From Candidatus Shapirobacteria bacterium (GTDB lineage Bacteria; Patescibacteriota; Microgenomatia; UBA12405): 64,000 nt of DNA. Location of the stretch: NCBI GenBank assembly GCA_022837635.1, contig JALHFY010000002.1, positions 5,055-69,054 on the forward strand. Direction: 5' to 3'. Shown in pieces: positions 1,059 through 52,143 of this stretch (positions are counted from its first letter, which is position 1; every line of letters begins with the position of its first letter). Made by a program: the position numbers and the translations under genes. The notes under the pieces were generated by a model. That model was not told the origin of the DNA and did no database searches. It worked only from the letters and a program-made list of their open reading frames with translations.

Positions 1059-2459
1059 ATGGAGTATCGTATTAGGGAGCGGCCCTCTGGTCAGGAAAGT
1101 GAGGCTGCTGGTTGGCAGTTAAGAGCAGAAAAAAAACGGATTTTTTTAGAAAGAGGAATGGAGCGAATTGGCGTGGAATTAGGAAAAAGAAAGTTGAGAG
1201 CAGTGATTGAAGGAGAAGGTCAGGTGGCGATTGTGAGAGAGGGGAAAATAGCTTATTTATCAAATCAAAGTCAGGGAGAAATCAGAACTGGTGATGAAGT
1301 TTGGATAGTAACAGAAGTGAGGGTAAAAATAGATTTTGTCAAAAAAGAGAAAATTAAAAAAGAAATTTTTGTCTCCGAAAGGAGATGGTTTGATCAAAGA
1401 GTCAGCAAGGAATTGAATGTAATTTTGGGGGTGGGAGTATTGGCGATATTGCTAGGAATTATCGTCTTGGGTTATCAAAAAAGAAGTAGTGCCATGGAGC
1501 AAAATAAATTTGAGAGTGTCAAGAAAGAATTTAATGAAGAATTAAAAAGAGCTCAAGAAATTAGAGAAAAAGAACCTGATAAAAGTTTAGAAATAGTGGA
1601 AAAAGCGGTAGAAAAATTAAGAGAGCGTAAATTCAAAAAGAGTGATTTGACTAATGAAATAAATAGATTAACAGAAGAAGGAATTAGTTATCAAAATAAG
1701 TTGGGACGGGAGAACAAAAATTATGAGGTGGCTTACAACACTAAATTAATTTATGAAGGCGAGAGACAATTTGACGGTTTGGCGAGTAAGGAATCGGTAA
1801 TTTATTTATGGAGTAAGGAGAGGGCTGAAGTAATAGCAGTGAATTTGGAGATGCAATCTAAGGATAAGATAGTGGCAGATGAAAAGATTGGAAAAACTGA
1901 AGGAGTGTTTAATAACGGAGAAAGATGGTATGGATACGGAGAGAATAAAGTGTGGGAGATAAAAAGAAATGCGGTAGAAGAAAGCCCAATAGAATCTTTG
2001 GAAATAGATCAAGTCAGTGCTTGGAAAGGATTGATCTATGCTCTAAATAATGAGCAAAGACAGATAGTTAAATTGAGTGGAAGTAGTTGGACAAAATGGA
2101 ACAACACTCCCCTGCCGGCGACCATGACCGGAATGGCCATTGACGGCGATATTTGGACGTTGTCGGAGGGGGCGCAGATTTATAAATTCACCCGAGGAGA
2201 AAAGGTGAACTTTGAAATGAGTTTTAAGCCACCGGCAGTTAATCCGGGGAAAATTATCACCAGCGACAAGGTAAACATAGTCGCCTTTATTAATGATGAT
2301 AAAGTGTGGATTTATGGAAAAAATGGTAAAATTTTGGCCAGACTTAATTTTGGTAAAAATGAAATCGTGGACATCGCGATAGAAAATCCGAAGGAGGCCG
2401 TTTTAGTCCTGGCCGCAGACGGAAATATTTACCGAGTCAAAAACAATGAGATATTTTAA
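1059..2459 (+). CDS. hypothetical single-pass membrane protein with coiled-coil and extracytoplasmic domain
   Basis: 466-aa ORF with a TM segment (ILGVGVLAILLGIIVLG) and a charged coiled-coil stretch; no recognisable catalytic motif. Confidence 0.4.
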   Translation: MEYRIRERPSGQESEAAGWQLRAEKKRIFLERGMERIGVELGKRKLRAVIEGEGQVAIVREGKIAYLSNQSQGEIRTGDEVWIVTEVRVKIDFVKKEKIKKEIFVSERRWFDQRVSKELNVILGVGVLAILLGIIVLGYQKRSSAMEQNKFESVKKEFNEELKRAQEIREKEPDKSLEIVEKAVEKLRERKFKKSDLTNEINRLTEEGISYQNKLGRENKNYEVAYNTKLIYEGERQFDGLASKESVIYLWSKERAEVIAVNLEMQSKDKIVADEKIGKTEGVFNNGERWYGYGENKVWEIKRNAVEESPIESLEIDQVSAWKGLIYALNNEQRQIVKLSGSSWTKWNNTPLPATMTGMAIDGDIWTLSEGAQIYKFTRGEKVNFEMSFKPPAVNPGKIITSDKVNIVAFINDDKVWIYGKNGKILARLNFGKNEIVDIAIENPKEAVLVLAADGNIYRVKNNEIF

Positions 2460-2856
2460 TCGTGAGAGTCACGACTATAAATTTATTGACAAAATGGTGG
2501 CCGGAATGGTGTTAAACGGCGCCGATGCCAAGTCCCTAAGAGTGGCCGGGGTCCAATTCAAGGGAGCTAAAGTGGAAGTGATCAATGGCATTCCCAAGGT
2601 GTTTAATTTACAAATCAGTCCTTATAAATATAGTCGGAATCAAGAAATTGATAAAAGTGGTGAGAGAAAATTACTCTTAAATTCCCGAGAAATTGCTAAA
2701 CTACAAAGTTATCGGAGACAAAAATATATGCTGATTCCGATAGCGATTTTTTTACAGGGAAAGTGGTTTAAGATGGAAATTGGAATTGGCAGAAAGATGA
2801 GGAAGTTTGAAAAAAGGGAGAAGATTAGGAAGGAGGAGTTTGAGAAAAATAATTAG
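2446..2856 (+). CDS. smpB: SsrA-binding protein SmpB
   Basis: N-terminal ...ESHDYKFIDKMVAGMVLNGADAKSLR... matches the SmpB core; basic C-terminal tail; a tmRNA gene lies immediately downstream. Confidence 0.85.
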   Translation: MRYFNRESHDYKFIDKMVAGMVLNGADAKSLRVAGVQFKGAKVEVINGIPKVFNLQISPYKYSRNQEIDKSGERKLLLNSREIAKLQSYRRQKYMLIPIAIFLQGKWFKMEIGIGRKMRKFEKREKIRKEEFEKNN

Positions 2857-2888
2857 ACAGTAGAAACACAATTTATATTTTTACGTTG

Positions 2889-3265
2889 CGGAGATGCCCG
2901 GGAATGAACCGGGGTCCGAAATTGAAATTAAAAAACGTCGACAAGCTTAAGTAAAAAACATCGATTGGTTGGGACATTACTCCCTCTTAGGTCTGACAAT
3001 AACCGAGAAATCATCAGACAGCAGTTTAAAATGGTTGACACTGTTTAAGCCCTTTTAGACAAGAGCAAAAACAATGGTTGATTGCTTAAGCTAGTGCGTA
3101 AGCAGGAGCCGCAGGAGCATTGATACCAGTAAAGGCATCGGCTACTTTGGTCAAATCAACGCCAAAAGTTTTTTTGGCATAATGTTTTGATTCTCTTTTA
3201 CGACGATGAATCAAAGTCGGCTTGCAGTTTTTTAAGGTGCAATCCCGTCAAGGCGTTACATCTCC
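2889..3265 (-). ncRNA. ssrA: tmRNA (ssrA)
   Basis: The minus-strand 5' end GGAGAUGUAACGCCUUGACGGGAUUGCACC resembles canonical GGGGCUG...UUCGACGGGAUUUGCG. The 3' end ...GGACCCCGGUUCAUUCCCGGGCAUCUCC has a T-arm with a UUCAUUC loop and a 7-bp acceptor pairing with the 5' end. An internal in-frame tag ORF reads ...ADAFTGINAPAAPAYALA then a TAA stop (stop at 3086-3088 on the minus strand). The gene is adjacent to smpB. Confidence 0.75.
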
Positions 3266-3408
3266 ATGAGGAGTTATATTTTATCATAAAAACAGACAGA
3301 AATCATGATAATTGAGTACTATTTTTTTAAGGAAAATTGCAAAATCTGAGCCAATAAAATAAGTCTATATTAGTTTTCAGATTTAGTTAAGTATTTTACA
3401 ATTAGAGG

Positions 3409-40240: not shown

Positions 40241-40293
40241 TACCGACGGTGACCGAACAGTTAGGTGACGCTCTGTAAAAGCGTTTTAAGCAA

Positions 40294-41388
40294 GTGCAAC
40301 TCTTGCCCGTCGGACTGATGAAAAATAATATAAACAAATCTCTATTGAAAAAATTGGTAGAGATAAAATCGCTAAGCCAGGAGACGGTCCAGTGTCTAAA
40401 AGCACTGAAACTGATTGAGCTGGAAATAAATAAAGCAAATATTCCGGTATTTATCGATGTAAATGAGGGTGTGCCTTTTTTGATAGCCGGAAATTTACAA
40501 CAGGCTGGGGTTCTATTTTTAAGTCATATTGATGTGGTACCAGCGACCAATGAAGGTTTTAAATTTAAAGAAGTCGGCAATAAATTTTTTGGCAGAGGGG
40601 TTTTAGATATGAAAGGACCGCTGGTGGCGACCTTGGATGCTTTTATAAAATTATGGAAAGCAGGTCATAAAAACATTATTTTTGCGGTTACTAGTGATGA
40701 AGAAGTGGGTGGTTTTAAGGGAGCGGCATTTTTAGCAAAAAATATATTGGGGAAGATTAAAATGGCCCTAATTCCTGATGGTAGTAGTGAAGATGTGGTT
40801 CTAATTCAAAAAGCACCCTTTCATATAAAAATTACCGCTAGAGGAAAATCAGCTCATGCTTCCAGACCTTGGGAAGGCATCAATGCTGCGGAAAATTTAG
40901 GAAAATGTTGTGGCGAAATACTGGCAAAAATTAATGGGAAAAAGCCGGAAGAAACGACAGCAACACTATGTCAATTTCATAGTGGTCAGACAACTAATAT
41001 GCTACCCAACAAAGCTGAAGCGGTGATGGATATCAGAATTAAACAAGAAACTGAAGTGAAAGCGATGGTGAAAAATTTAAATCAGGTAACAAAAAAAATT
41101 GGATGTAAATGGGAAAAGATTGATGAAGCCTTATTTTTTGAGATAAAAAAGGAGCAACCGTTGATTAAAAAATGGCAACAGGCCTTTAGAGCAGTCCATC
41201 AAAAAGAAGCGGGTTTTGTCATTGAAAACGGAGCCTCGGATGCCAGATTTTTATGGCAAGAATTAAAAATACCGATAATTGTCACTTCGGCTAAGGGAGC
41301 TGGAGCACACAGTCATCATGAGTGGGTGGAAATAAATTCTTTGAGTCAATTATCAGAAACAATTGTCAAATTTATTATTAGTTTATAA
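40294..41388 (+). CDS. M20-family metallopeptidase (ArgE/DapE/CPG2-like)
   Basis: SHIDVVPA, GRGVLDMKG, ...SDEEVGG... metal-binding motifs. The start may instead be the ATG at 40318. Confidence 0.7.
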   Translation: MQLLPVGLMKNNINKSLLKKLVEIKSLSQETVQCLKALKLIELEINKANIPVFIDVNEGVPFLIAGNLQQAGVLFLSHIDVVPATNEGFKFKEVGNKFFGRGVLDMKGPLVATLDAFIKLWKAGHKNIIFAVTSDEEVGGFKGAAFLAKNILGKIKMALIPDGSSEDVVLIQKAPFHIKITARGKSAHASRPWEGINAAENLGKCCGEILAKINGKKPEETTATLCQFHSGQTTNMLPNKAEAVMDIRIKQETEVKAMVKNLNQVTKKIGCKWEKIDEALFFEIKKEQPLIKKWQQAFRAVHQKEAGFVIENGASDARFLWQELKIPIIVTSAKGAGAHSHHEWVEINSLSQLSETIVKFIISL

Positions 41389-46525: not shown

Positions 46526-46705
46526 GAAGAGATAGGGAAAATCAGATGGTTTTGTACATCAGAACTTCGTCAATGAATTGGTCTTTATAGAATAGACCTT
46601 GAGGTAGACGACCGTATTCGACAAAACTAAGTGACTGGTAGAGATGTTGAGTTACTTTATTGGAGAAAATTTAAAGAAAGATTACGGAAAGAAGGTAATG
46701 AAAGT

Positions 46706-46720
46706 GTGACAAATTGTCAC
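46706..46720. promoter_or_regulatory. perfect 15-bp palindrome in the valS upstream region
   Basis: GTGACAAATTGTCAC about 180 nt upstream of the valS start; candidate operator. Confidence 0.3.
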
Positions 46721-46757
46721 GTTTTCAAATTATTGGCAGTAGACACGGAGACACTAT

Positions 46758-49101: not shown

Positions 49102-49806
49102 TCATAAACTCTCCAGTTGAGTAAAAAGATTGATTAATCCTTCTAATTTTTGGCGGTAAACTTGGCAATCTTTTCTACTTTCGGGAATAAAAAGTCGGGG
49201 AGAACGATTGATAAGCATGGAATATTGAGACAAGAGACTGTTTTTGATACGAGGAATTAAAAAGCTTCTAAATTGAGGCATATCGGGGATACTACCGCTT
49301 TTTTTGATATTAGGTTTAACGGCATTTTTTAACCAATCTTTAATATCGGCACGCCAATTTCCGAGAGTAAGATTAATAAAAGGGGCTTTAAGATTATCAA
49401 GCCAATGTCCCCCGTTGGAGTTAAGACTAGAAGAGTTTTTACCCAGCTTGATATCAAGACCCAACATAATTTTTTGCTGGGAATTGGTAATGAGGATATC
49501 AACTCCCCTCTGATCTTGACCATGTTCCAGGGATTGAGCAGCTAAATCGATACTATAATTATGTGAAGACAGGGGTTTTTCCAAAGCTAAAACGGTCACA
49601 AATTCTGATAAAAGTGCTTGGGTATATTCAAAATGTTTGTTTTTGCCTTCAGAGTGAGCTTTCAAAAGATCAGTACGAGAGGTACGAAAATCGGGGGTAC
49701 AGGTAGTATAGAGAGGGTCATGATTGAGAAGATAGTAAGTGTTGTGGGGAAGATAAGATCCGGAATATCGTCGAATAAAATTACTAGTTTCTAAAAGCGT
49801 CAACAA
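49102..49806 (-). CDS. hypothetical protein
   Basis: 234-aa ORF with no recognised motif, at the edge of the accessory region. Confidence 0.3.
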   Translation of the reverse strand: MLTLLETSNFIRRYSGSYLPHNTYYLLNHDPLYTTCTPDFRTSRTDLLKAHSEGKNKHFEYTQALLSEFVTVLALEKPLSSHNYSIDLAAQSLEHGQDQRGVDILITNSQQKIMLGLDIKLGKNSSSLNSNGGHWLDNLKAPFINLTLGNWRADIKDWLKNAVKPNIKKSGSIPDMPQFRSFLIPRIKNSLLSQYSMLINRSPRLFIPESRKDCQVYRQKLEGLINLFTQLESL

Positions 49807-49930
49807 ATAAATATTAACTTAATTTTTCAAAAAGAAAACTGGGTTGATTTTTGTCTTTGGACTTTATTTCAAAGCAAAAAATCGGTAAAATACTATGCCT
49901 AACCGAAAGGTTGGGAAAAAAGTGAAATTA

Positions 49931-49983
49931 GGAGGGGTCGGATAGTGTCCCAAAGGGACCCCGTTGGGGGTTCATTCCCCTCC
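49931..49983 (+). repeat. partial/pseudo tRNA-Ser copy (5' 17 nt + D-loop segment + acceptor 3' strand) flanking the GIY-YIG gene
   Basis: GGAGGGGTCGGATAGTG is identical to nt 1-17 of the tRNA-Ser at 50246, then a 22-nt insert, then GTTCATTCC and CCCCTCC shared with the tRNA. Confidence 0.5.
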
Positions 49984-49999
49984 TTGGTAATATAAAGGT

Positions 50000-50260
50000 A
50001 TGAATTATTACCTTTATATATTAAAAAGTTGTGATGGTAAACATTGGTATACAGGCTCGACAAGCAATATAATGTTGAGACTAAAACACCATAATAATGG
50101 TCATACATTTTCCACTAAACCGTATAGACCATGGAAATTAGTTTACTACGAAAAATTTAGTAGCCGGAAAGAAGCTTTTCGGAGAGAAATGTTTTTAAAG
50201 TCTCCGTCCGGTTATCAAGATTATTTGAAAATTAAAAAATCTATTGGAGGGGTCGGATAG
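50000..50260 (+). CDS. small GIY-YIG nuclease-family protein
   Basis: YYLYILKSCDGKHWYTGST...RLKHHN...; GIY-YIG core in 86 aa. The 3' end overlaps the first 15 nt of tRNA-Ser. Confidence 0.7.
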   Translation: MNYYLYILKSCDGKHWYTGSTSNIMLRLKHHNNGHTFSTKPYRPWKLVYYEKFSSRKEAFRREMFLKSPSGYQDYLKIKKSIGGVG

Positions 50261-50331
50261 TGGTTCATTCCACAGACCTGGAAAGTCTGCGGCCTTCATC
50301 GGCCTCGCGGGTTCGAATCCCGCCCCCTCCG
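50246..50331 (+). tRNA. tRNA-Ser (GGA), type II
   Basis: Acceptor GGAGGGG/CCCCTCC, discriminator G, D-arm GGA-TAGTGGTTCAT-TCC, anticodon loop CTGGAAA, long variable arm GGCCTTCATCGGCC, T-arm GCGGGTTCGAATCCCGC; CCA not encoded. Confidence 0.8.
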
Positions 50332-50376
50332 CTAAAAACTACACAAAACTATTATGAGGTATTAAAATCTAATAGA

Positions 50377-52143
50377 ATGGCACAAGTTTTTAAGACAACA
50401 GATTATACAATCGGTAAATTAATTGACGATATTGAAATCGGTGATATTGCTTTACCTGATATTCAACGTCCTTTTGTTTGGTACAAAAAAATATCAAAAG
50501 TTCGTGATTTGTTTGATTCTATTTATCGCGGTTATCCGATTGGTTATCTGCTTTTTTGGGAAAACGCAAACAGAAGTGATTACAGAAATATTGGGTTTGA
50601 AGAGAAAAAACGAAAAATACCAAGGTTTTTAATAATTGACGGACAACAAAGATTAACTGCTCTTTTCGCTGTAATGAAAAATCAGGAAGTTTTAACTCCT
50701 GACTATGAAAGTAAAAAAATTAAGATTGCATTTCGTCCAATAGACGCAAACTTTAAGGTTGGTGATGCAGCTACTGACCGAGACCCAGAATATATACCTG
50801 ATTTGTCAGCTTTATGGTCTGGAGAGGGTGACTATGCTGTGATTAGTAGTTTTATTTCTCAATTAAAAGAAAAACGGGAAATTACAAGAGAAGAAGAAAA
50901 GATAATTTCTACTAACATTCAATCTCTTATTAATGTTAATAAATATCCACTGACAGCTCTTGAAATAGCTCCAGACTTGGATGAAGAAATTGTATCGGAA
51001 ATTTTTGTCCGTATTAATAGTCAAGGCGTAAGTTTAACGCAAGCCGACTTTATTTTAACCCTACTTTCTGTTTATTGGGAAGAAGGGAGAACAGAAATTG
51101 AACAATTTTGTATTGATTCAAGGACGATTCCGGAAAAAGAAAGTCCCTTTTCTTCTTTTAATCATTTAATTAAACCTGATCCGGATGATATGCTTCGTGT
51201 TTTAGTGGGCTTGACATTTCGCCGCGCAAAAATGAAAGATGTTTATTCTGTTATTCGTGGACGTGATATGGAAACTGGAGAATTTTCTGAAGATTTAAGA
51301 ACACAACAGTTTGATAAATTAAAATTAAACTTACCAATAGTTCTGGATAATACTAACTGGCAAAGTTTTCTAAAAATTCTGATTGGAAGTGGATATAAAG
51401 ACGAGGAACTTATATCATCAAAAAATGCGGTCTTGTATAGTTATGTCCTTTTTCTGATTGGAAAAGAAAATTTTAACACCCAAAACCATGAGCTACAAAG
51501 AATTATCGGACGATGGTTTGTAATGTCTTCTTTGACAGGAAGGTATTCTTCTTCACCAGAAACCGCTTTTGAAAAGGATTTAAGTAGAATTAAAGAGTTT
51601 AGTCATGATGGATTTATTGACGGACTGGAAAAAATAATTGACGAGAATTTAACTAATGATTTTTGGGATATTACATTAGTCGGACAAATGGAAACGTCAT
51701 CAGCAAGAAGCCCAGAAGCCAACGCATTTTATGCAGCACTTAATAAACTTGGTTCACAGGTTTTGTTTTCTCGTAAACTGGTCGGTGATCTTTATGATCC
51801 ATCATTAAAAATTAGAAAGAAGCGTCTAGAAAGACATCATATTTTCCCAAGAAATTATCTTATTGCGAAATATGGATTTGATAAAAATAAAGACAAAGCA
51901 AAAATAAACCAAATTGCTAACCTGACATTTTTAGAATTTGAAGACAATATTGAAATTAGTGATAGTGCGCCAAGTGAATATTTTGCGATGCTTAAAAAGC
52001 GTTTTTCTGAAGAAGAGCTAAATCAAATGCTAGCTCAACATGCTATTCCACAAAAATTTTATGAACTAGAATATGATGAGTTTCTTAAAGAGAGAAGGAA
52101 GTTAATGGTGGGAGTTATTAGACAGGCATTTAACAAAACATAG
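50377..52143 (+). CDS. GmrSD-like type IV restriction protein (DUF262 ParB-like NTPase/nuclease + DUF1524 HNH-like)
   Basis: N-terminal ...DIQRPFVW...IIDGQQRLTALF (DUF262 DGQQR motif); C-terminal ...ERHHIFPRNYL...NQIANLTFLE (DUF1524 His-Me finger). The ORF-track N-terminal extension through the tRNA is rejected. Confidence 0.75.
   Translation: MAQVFKTTDYTIGKLIDDIEIGDIALPDIQRPFVWYKKISKVRDLFDSIYRGYPIGYLLFWENANRSDYRNIGFEEKKRKIPRFLIIDGQQRLTALFAVMKNQEVLTPDYESKKIKIAFRPIDANFKVGDAATDRDPEYIPDLSALWSGEGDYAVISSFISQLKEKREITREEEKIISTNIQSLINVNKYPLTALEIAPDLDEEIVSEIFVRINSQGVSLTQADFILTLLSVYWEEGRTEIEQFCIDSRTIPEKESPFSSFNHLIKPDPDDMLRVLVGLTFRRAKMKDVYSVIRGRDMETGEFSEDLRTQQFDKLKLNLPIVLDNTNWQSFLKILIGSGYKDEELISSKNAVLYSYVLFLIGKENFNTQNHELQRIIGRWFVMSSLTGRYSSSPETAFEKDLSRIKEFSHDGFIDGLEKIIDENLTNDFWDITLVGQMETSSARSPEANAFYAALNKLGSQVLFSRKLVGDLYDPSLKIRKKRLERHHIFPRNYLIAKYGFDKNKDKAKINQIANLTFLEFEDNIEISDSAPSEYFAMLKKRFSEEELNQMLAQHAIPQKFYELEYDEFLKERRKLMVGVIRQAFNKT

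Follow-up and report, generated by a model that had tools for sequence, protein, structure and literature searches.

The 64-kb stretch of DNA analysed here (hereafter the window), from contig JALHFY010000002.1 of a Candidatus Shapirobacteria bacterium, carries a gene for an 86-residue GIY-YIG nuclease lodged between an intact serine transfer RNA (tRNA) gene and a displaced piece of the 5' end of that same tRNA. The open reading frame (ORF) occupies positions 50000–50260 of the plus strand, and the tRNA-Ser(GGA) was called by ARAGORN at 50246–50332 and by Rfam, over its full length and with 53.7 bits, at 50246–50331. A first-pass annotation of this DNA had already placed the ORF between the tRNA and a partial copy of it, with the first 17 nucleotides (nt) of the tRNA on both sides and the stop codon overlapping the tRNA 5' end, and these observations all hold at the same coordinates. 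The direct repeat, GGAGGGGTCGGATAGTG, is 100% identical between 49931–49947 and 50246–50262 (the chance expectation for an exact 17-mer repeated within ~300 nt is ~1e-8). The TAG stop codon (50258–50260) coincides with tRNA nt 13–15, so the last five codons of the gene (GGVG*), or 15 nt in all, are tRNA nt 1–15.

The 53 nt at the upstream side had been described as a pseudo-copy of the tRNA. They are indeed derived from it, as the exact repeats demonstrate, but they do not form a plain truncated copy: tRNA nt 1–17 (49931–49947), the original 5' end of the invaded gene, are separated from nt 18–26 (GTTCATTCC, 49970–49978) by a 22-nt insert, TCCCAAAGGGACCCCGTTGGGG (49948–49969), and the continuation closes with CCTCC (49970–49983 as a whole). 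The continuation is visible as a second exact repeat (D4), in which 49969–49978 equals 50262–50271, and its last bases, together with the two preceding C's, give CCCCTCC (49977–49983), which matches the 3' strand of the acceptor. Beyond nt 26 the fragment differs among relatives and is therefore decaying. The insert is a module of two adjacent hairpins, TCCCAAAGGGA followed by CCCCGTTGGGG, defined by covariation of its pairs and by its context; it forms the left end of the inserted DNA and occurs once in the window (0.04 expected). We considered whether the closing helix GGAGGGG/CCCCTCC could be a functional minihelix and rejected this, as it is not conserved in the related loci L019 or L020 and the fold has a z-score of only −1.97. 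Down to E=1, no Rfam family matches the fragment, the module or the ORF region (49931–50245). The same arrangement is present in 24 independently assembled contigs and is therefore no assembly artefact. Neither partial copies of the other tRNAs of the window nor a second GIY-YIG gene were found in the 64 kb.

Empty sites, scars and repeated invasion

The clearest view of the insertion comes from a pair of loci in which L146 is the empty allele of the occupied L015. The upstream flank (L015 505–2941) aligns with L146 1–2436 at 95% identity and ends at tRNA nt 17, while the downstream flank (L015 3252–4055) aligns with L146 from 7 nt ahead of the tRNA at 89% identity. The intervening 310 bp (L015 2942–3251) begin with the hairpin module directly after nt 17, in the D-loop, and are flanked by a 24-nt direct repeat. 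Likewise, in a comparison of L011 with L153 the homology of the upstream flank runs through the displaced piece and stops at nt 17. This presence/absence polymorphism at nt 17 bears out the earlier proposal of an insertion in the D-arm region of tRNA-Ser that regenerates the tRNA 5' end, and it sets the junction in the D-loop exactly between nt 17 and 18.

Unoccupied sites are the rule. An exact-pattern scan of metagenomes for this type of tRNA-Ser(GGA) gave 74 loci, 72 of which lack the ORF. Among the 62 with enough upstream sequence to be assessed, 2 have the ORF, at least 17 have scars without it and 43 are apparently clean (a control region gave 0 hits in the scar scan). ORF-less scars are ~8 times commoner than intact copies, and such a distribution would be expected if invasion, decay and loss follow one another in a cycle. 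The clean ancestral state is represented by L148, which has TATAAT 13 nt ahead of the tRNA. L146, in turn, holds an older ORF-less scar made of tRNA nt 1–12, a nested hairpin, degenerate nt 13–24 and a 14-nt remnant; the 7 extra nt (aaaatct) in the downstream alignment are the 3' end of the ORF in L015, and L146 has them too, inside this scar. In L015 an older ORF-less scar (junction after nt 12) accompanies the current element (junction after nt 17), and this locus has therefore been invaded at least twice. The inner hairpin of an older scar in L017 differs from that of L015, so the hairpins appear to nest or to be replaced. In L017 the same tRNA-Ser also has, immediately downstream, a second and more distant small GIY-YIG gene (81 aa, 1045–1290), after which comes a serine-recombinase island (1967–3325).

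The protein, its relatives and the hairpins

Both profile and fold identify the 86-residue protein as GIY-YIG, as the first-pass annotation had supposed. It matches Pfam PF01541 with E=5.6e-16 (59.1 bits against a cutoff of 22.6), and an AlphaFold2 model has a mean predicted local distance difference test score of 92.8 and a predicted template modelling score of 0.80, the tRNA-encoded C-terminal tail scoring low. The best Foldseek matches of this model are 1zg2, Slx1 and the N-terminal domain of UvrC, and the nearest solved relatives are the UPF0213 structures 1ywl and 1zg2 (E ~1e-10) and the nuclease domain of Slx1 (template modelling score 0.64–0.72, 28–34% identity), of which only residues ~11–89 align. 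Pfam and the model reveal no domain beyond the catalytic core and no DNA-binding domain, and NCBIfam, PHROGs and PADLOC gave no match. The protein is a bare UPF0213/Slx1-like nuclease domain and no Slx1 orthologue; by analogy it may act on DNA structure as Slx1 does. Residues Y6, Y17, G19, R27, H31 and E63 are invariant in 13 homologues, as is the motif STKPYRPW, which together with the linkage to tRNA genes marks this subfamily. Selection on the ORF is evident: within the tRNA-Ser(GGA) lineage the ratio of non-synonymous to synonymous substitution rates is 0.08–0.22 in 12 of the 13 pairs with a defined estimate (the exception, L117/L015, has 0.34), and the protein is therefore maintained by purifying selection. 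The family at large comprises 22,029 clusters at 50% identity with E<=1e-3 and 5,589 with E<=1e-10, nearly all listed members being 80–130 aa long. No relative was found in the viral contigs of IMG/VR, leaving a phage origin unsupported.

The first-pass annotation had suggested looking for the same ORF at other tRNA genes, and it is found there, beside many isotypes and with partial tRNA duplications. From the species representatives of GTDB we assembled 80 homologous loci, which span Patescibacteria, Bacteroidota, Ignavibacteria/Kapabacteria, Chloroflexi and others. A tRNA gene on the same strand abuts the ORF in 57 of them, just downstream in 38, just upstream in 26 and on both sides in 7, and a tRNA on the opposite strand lies nearby in only 2 of the 80. 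ARAGORN distinguishes 14 tRNA types immediately downstream and 12 immediately upstream, among them Ser, Arg, Tyr, Cys, Lys, Met, Pro, Gln, Leu and Thr; on the downstream side, the calls of Ala, of Gly and in part of Cys are chimeric pseudo-tRNAs. In 28 of the 38 loci with a downstream tRNA an exact copy of at least 10 nt from tRNA nt 1–26 lies within 200 nt upstream of the ORF, and in 27 of these 28 it is followed by a G+C-rich hairpin. With the functional tRNA on the upstream side, the ORF extends into a displaced 3' copy beginning in the D-arm; in these copies hairpins such as TCCCGAT...ATCGGGA (L098, L064, L059, L091) replace the anticodon arm or interrupt its loops, and L022, L096 and L085 have hairpins in the D-, anticodon and T-loops. 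The stop codon of the ORF is often supplied by the tRNA (U8-A9-G10 in Arg, Lys and Thr, nt 13–15 in Ser), and many homologues end in GGVA, GEVA or GGVG, the translated 5' end of tRNA-Ser.

The order seen in the window recurs in L011 (Woesebacteria, 69% identity), L015 (72%), L019, L020, L117 and others: tRNA nt 1–17, the double hairpin, further tRNA sequence (to nt 33 in L015), a short A+T-rich linker, the ORF and the full tRNA. In each genome the displaced 5' piece agrees with the tRNA resident there (GGAGGGGTCGGA, GGAGGAGTCGCC, GGAGAAGTCGCA), with some exceptions: the fragment of L038 differs from its own tRNA, and the continuation in L021 is closer to the tRNA type of L031 than to its own. 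Members of one protein lineage share their junction position (after nt 17 in the lineage of the window), other lineages have other positions (nt 12, 15, 31), and the length of duplicated tRNA varies among lineages from ~12 to 33 nt. Some loci are more elaborate. L098 (3256–3752, with a period of 422 bp) and L064 contain tandem units of ORF plus pseudo-tRNA, and L064 (2519–2945 and 3222–3679), L066 and L075 contain arrays, with periods of ~80–84 nt, of truncated tRNA copies whose anticodon arms are replaced by hairpins. ARAGORN miscalls the chimeras of these loci as tRNA-Cys(GCA), tRNA-Ala(TGC or GGC) or tRNA-Gly(TCC).

The module of the window consists of two adjacent 4-bp hairpins with the consensus NCCCRAAGGGN-NCCCYTYGGGN. 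Across 16 distinct variants all 128 of 128 pair cells are paired and 4 of the 8 pairs show compensatory double changes, a covariation matched by none of 500 shuffles. Three of the variants' pairs are G-U wobbles on the sense strand and none is A-C, which weakly hints at a strand-specific role, as RNA or single-stranded DNA. In the fetched loci the module occurs only beside these ORFs or in tRNA fragments. Other lineages have different palindromes; one example, CCTGCCTGCCGGCAGGCAGG, sits at nt 21/22 of the tRNAs for Arg and Lys. A TCCC...GGGA stem base is common to many hairpins across phyla, and all are confined to the tRNA copy that is non-functional, where most of them lie within or next to a loop of the cloverleaf. 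The Bacteroidota copies that bear hairpins gave only weak tRNA matches in Rfam. Upstream of tRNA-Ser(GGA) in the Patescibacteria L101, L121 and L141 there are ORF-less scars with hairpin types of the Bacteroidota elements (CCTGCCTGCCGGCAGGCA; TCCCGAT...ATCGGGA), so that a hairpin type is not tied to a single phylum or a single tRNA.

Several lesser features surround the element. A putative −10 box of the native tRNA-Ser promoter, TAAAAT at 49886–49891(+), assigned by position, now lies upstream of the displaced fragment, and the corresponding motif, aatcggTAAAAT, recurs in the clean empty site L165, where it precedes the tRNA by ~20 nt. A second −10-like box, TAATAT at 49988–49993(+), precedes the ATG by six nt and could possibly act as a promoter yielding a leaderless mRNA; TAATAT or TATAAT stands 5–7 nt ahead of the ATG in the window, L015, L019, L020 and L033, and ORF-less scars have the same −10-like box ~12 nt ahead of the tRNA. 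A scan for consensus promoters and terminators called neither a terminator at the module nor, upstream of the fragment, a canonical promoter. Between the putative native promoter and the fragment, a GNRA-type hairpin (CCTAACC-GAAA-GGTTGGG, 49898–49915, plus strand) can be read from the letters; it is identical in L001 and L005, different in L019, and may be a further hairpin insertion. The start codon of the ORF is enclosed by a perfect 11-bp inverted repeat, ATATAAAGGTA / TACCTTTATAT (49990–50019), which could occlude translation initiation or, in so A+T-rich a region, have arisen by chance.

On the 3' side of the tRNA is a hot spot at which defence genes are swapped. Directly downstream in the window lies a GmrSD-type (type IV restriction) gene (50377–52143; Pfam GmrSD_N and GmrSD_C, PADLOC HEC-05), the close strains L001–L009 have an HpaII methylase/endonuclease pair plus Vsr at the same position, and L019 is empty there. 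On the other side, a 743-bp segment (49105–49847) with a 234-aa ORF on the minus strand (49102–49806; no Pfam, PHROG or PADLOC match) is present in the window, L010 and L019 and replaced by 10 nt in L001–L009. A link between this indel and the element was considered and dropped, its boundaries having no target-site duplication and its content no recognisable domain. Further away, the close strains have an extra 1.26 kb (L001 2232–3491, compared with window 46542–46756; a Bro-N domain gene and a 69-aa ORF) that the window lacks. A 73-nt tRNA-Tyr(GTA) called by ARAGORN at 40243–40315 has no Rfam support and no canonical T-loop and is probably a false call, and a transfer-messenger RNA at 2886–3265 on the minus strand was found by Rfam and not reported by ARAGORN.

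How the element may spread

We favour, with a probability of roughly 0.6, the explanation that a minimal selfish element of ~315 bp (49948–50262) invaded the D-loop of tRNA-Ser(GGA) between nt 17 and 18 and spreads by break-repair homing. From left to right the element consists of the 22-nt double hairpin, tRNA nt 18–26, the −10-like box, the nuclease gene and a fresh copy of tRNA nt 1–17. This fresh copy joins the resident nt 18–87 and so rebuilds a working tRNA, the original nt 1–17 being left stranded upstream beside the old promoter. To spread, the nuclease would break an unoccupied tRNA gene, within it or nearby; since it has no DNA-binding domain, it would probably recognise DNA structure, namely hairpin or cruciform loops in the DNA of the tRNA gene (tDNA), rather than a long sequence. 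The occupied copy would then serve as the template for repair, with the two tRNA halves as homology arms, and everything between them (hairpin, tRNA continuation, −10 box, ORF and new tRNA 5' part) would be copied while the tRNA stays functional. Later decay of the ORF would leave a scar and a gene open to re-invasion. The hairpin may be a cis element, which either is recognised by the nuclease or prevents renewed cleavage or recombination of the direct repeats with each other. Homing by break repair fits the junction that is specific to each lineage, the scars and a tract of identity between close strains. The first-pass annotation had likewise thought of a homing-endonuclease-like unit; its GIY-YIG domain stands, a DNA-binding domain of the classical kind is absent, and homing would be the most probable of the mechanisms weighed here. 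It had also recognised the insertion, while overlooking the hairpin module that splits the copy, the ORF-less scars and how widespread the phenomenon is (protein clusters by the thousand, in several phyla).

The tract of identity just mentioned emerges from comparison of the window with L001. The ORF has 0 differences in 261 nt, whereas the ABC-transporter gene has 154 in 1752 (118 synonymous codons) and the Excalibur-domain gene 25 in 381 (P ~3e-10), most of the differences in these neighbouring genes being synonymous; the near flanks of the ORF are ~97% identical and genes further out 91–93%, and differences resume in the variable arm of the tRNA. Such a tract fits gene conversion and also ordinary recombination.

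A number of points weigh against homing. The identity of the ORF with that of L001 could reflect ordinary recombination at the hot spot that swaps defence genes. L019 comes from another species and has the same synteny; compared with the window, its element shows 88% identity and its flanks 76–85%. The element is therefore also retained vertically, and the comparison fits long vertical retention as well as homing. The empty L146 could equally have come from a precise deletion between direct repeats. At 23 of the 80 homologous loci no tRNA is adjacent. These include L040, L043, L048, L057, L060, L062, L069, L071, L072, L078, L087, L088 and L090 (the ORF mostly at ~3001), and many of the tRNA-less homologues have C-terminal tails such as FYENK or YYENK; an Rfam scan of 20 loci without an adjacent tRNA called by ARAGORN found no other RNA gene and one weak abutting tRNA match (L027), and in L048 the double-hairpin module lies just upstream of the ORF although no tRNA adjoins. 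A bare catalytic domain, unlike known GIY-YIG homing enzymes, leaves the targeting of tRNA genes unexplained. The rebuilt tRNA equals the empty-site tRNA across the junction, so that nothing obvious shields the occupied allele from cutting. Finally, both the cleavage activity of the 86-residue protein and its target are inferred.

Transposition would offer a different account of the same junctions, one that we consider unlikely. The nuclease would be a hairpin-recognising transposase that makes widely staggered nicks, the 17-nt repeat a target-site duplication, and the double hairpin the end of the element that the enzyme recognises (compare the hairpins of IS200/IS605 or REP/RAYT). The insert is flanked by a direct repeat of target sequence, a hairpin stands exactly at its left junction, hairpins accumulate and nest inside displaced copies much as small mobile units would, and the TCCC...GGGA stem base recurs across phyla. 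However, the right end has neither a hairpin nor an inverted repeat, and a simple target-site duplication does not explain why the tRNA continues after the hairpin (nt 18–26 or 18–33). That each lineage keeps one junction position, different from that of other lineages (nt 12, 15, 17, 31), fits an inherited donor architecture, and we know of no GIY-YIG transposase. A conventional insertion sequence or transposon was rejected, there being no terminal inverted repeats and no known transposase family, and the duplicated length varying over ~12–33 nt.

A bolder and likewise unlikely possibility is that the pseudo-tRNA with its hairpins is the working partner of the smallest known autonomous mobile element, the structure-specific nuclease reading hairpin or cloverleaf loops either in tDNA or by way of RNA from the fragment and its hairpins acting as guide, scaffold or antitoxin. 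If true, such a partner would enable a single catalytic domain, bare as it is, to home into tRNA genes of any kind and would give the uncharacterised UPF0213 family a function. The narrower proposal of an RNA partnership, in which the transcribed fragment and hairpins guide the nuclease to tRNA genes or hold it there as a scaffold, or act as a decoy or antitoxin resembling type III toxin-antitoxin systems, strikes us as quite unlikely. Compensatory changes keep the hairpin, and the three sense-strand G-U wobbles, with no A-C, would suit an RNA, although a count of three is statistically weak. The putative native tRNA promoter lies upstream of the fragment, and hairpins at or beside cloverleaf loops would preserve a tRNA-like fold, yet the fold z-score is a modest −1.97 and among relatives the tRNA-derived parts decay while only the hairpin is kept. 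Tandem arrays of fragment plus hairpin ahead of the ORF in L064, L066 and L075 resemble ToxI-type repeats, but the window has a single fragment, and a guide identical to the resident tRNA could not tell self from target. A ToxIN-like type III toxin-antitoxin system was itself rejected, with one fragment in the window, no PADLOC match and arrays in only some relatives.

A host function, with a housekeeping or repair nuclease co-transcribed with tRNA genes (for gene stability or the processing of R-loops and cruciforms) and the tRNA copies as by-products of local duplication, would sit well with strong purifying selection, retention at the same locus across the species-level divergence between the window and L019, the very large family and the same-strand linkage to tRNA genes. 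It appears very unlikely in view of the occurrence of the ORF at only 2 of 74 otherwise identical tRNA loci, its presence or absence among close relatives, the many isotypes used, the ~8-fold excess of ORF-less scars over intact copies and the tandem ORF duplications. That the locus is the remnant of an integrase island, with the tRNA fragment as what is left of an attachment site and the GIY-YIG gene as left-over cargo, is scarcely credible even at a tRNA that is a hot spot of variability (GmrSD in the window, HpaII restriction-modification and Vsr in L001–L009, the serine-recombinase island in L017), for the insert is only ~310 bp and has no integrase, the 5' and not the 3' end of the tRNA is duplicated, dozens of unrelated loci have the same compact architecture, the conserved block 49848–50373 does not include the variable islands, which are situated across the tRNA from the insert, and the L015/L146 comparison of occupied and empty alleles already largely refutes it. 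An intron of the tRNA, of group I or another kind, was rejected in view of the absence of any Rfam match to E=1 in 49931–50245 and the uninterrupted downstream tRNA.

If the homing explanation holds, the element, with ~310 bp and one protein of 86 residues, would rank among the smallest self-contained mobile elements known, and a nuclease without a DNA-binding domain would be site-specific in effect, through the universal structure and conservation of tRNA genes. Small UPF0213-type proteins form a very large family (5,589 clusters at E<=1e-10), and for its tRNA-linked part the explanation would also suggest a role. The economy of the gene is considerable, its stop codon being borrowed from the tRNA (nt 13–15 here, U8-A9-G10 elsewhere) and its promoter apparently too. 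Elements of this type account for many partial or chimeric tRNA calls in Patescibacteria and Bacteroidota that are misread as Cys, Ala and Gly tRNAs, and they may add to the variability of tRNA loci. The nuclease and hairpin could become a compact structure-specific tool if their specificity were worked out.

Comparison with known systems

A full-text literature search, with most subscription journals outside its reach, turned up no account of small GIY-YIG genes that are accompanied by hairpins and split tRNA copies. Integrase-borne islands likewise land in conserved tRNA genes, restore the tRNA and leave a complete copy plus a partial one. We rejected an integrase-mediated island for the window: no integrase is present, the repeat is tRNA nt 1–17 and not the 3' part, so that the 5' end is duplicated, the insert measures ~310 bp and not kilobases, and the junction lies in the D-loop (in the anticodon arm or loop in other lineages).

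The closest proteins by sequence and fold, with catalytic residues in common, are UPF0213 (BH0048, PDB 1zg2; EF2693, 1ywl) and, in eukaryotes, Slx1 with its nuclease domain. No function has been assigned to the UPF0213 structures. Slx1 depends on Slx4 and carries a zinc-finger (RING/PHD) domain at its C-terminus, and the 86-residue protein has neither.

A parallel in architecture comes from mitochondria. Paquin, Laforest and Lang (1994, 2000) reportedly described a mobile GIY-YIG ORF in the Allomyces mitochondrial atp6 gene, as well as mitochondrial double-hairpin elements, or GC clusters. In atp6 the endonuclease ORF is said to be inserted in frame in an essential gene and to bring a replacement gene end, with the displaced original end staying beside it; the double hairpins are said to be short, G+C-rich in an A+T-rich genome, and prone to insert into loops and into each other. 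The window differs in that a bacterial tRNA gene is the target, some lineages replace its 5' part and others its 3' part, the protein is far shorter, and the hairpins are confined to the displaced tRNA copy instead of being dispersed through the genome.

The nearest functional counterpart is SegB of phages T4 and T6, a free-standing GIY-YIG homing enzyme tied to tRNA genes and encoded within their cluster, whose spread by break repair with co-conversion of flanks is documented and which drives tandem amplification of tRNA-segB units, the 3' end of segB having microhomology to the 5' end of the tRNA (PMC2330249; PMC13096335). The element of the window shares with it a GIY-YIG gene beside same-strand tRNA genes and a sporadic distribution; break-repair spread, documented for SegB, would be the corresponding step proposed here. 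In both, the 3' end of the nuclease gene has sequence in common with the 5' end of a tRNA, which gives tandem tRNA-nuclease repeats in the case of SegB, and the tandem units of L098 and L064 resemble these. SegB is far larger than 86 residues and, like classical GIY-YIG homing enzymes, combines a catalytic with a DNA-binding domain. It belongs to the I-TevI/Seg branch, whereas the protein of the window is a bare catalytic domain of the UPF0213/Slx1 branch. The element is, moreover, chromosomal in bacteria, with no relative found in IMG/VR, and its insert lies inside the tRNA gene, rebuilds the tRNA, carries a hairpin module and borrows its stop codon. As free-standing homing genes do, it occurs sporadically at a conserved site (2/74) and has an empty allele in a close relative (L015/L146), while the DNA-binding domain by which such genes reach a long target is missing from it. 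Taken together, these comparisons portray the element as probably a variant of the free-standing homing-endonuclease elements, widespread and apparently undescribed.

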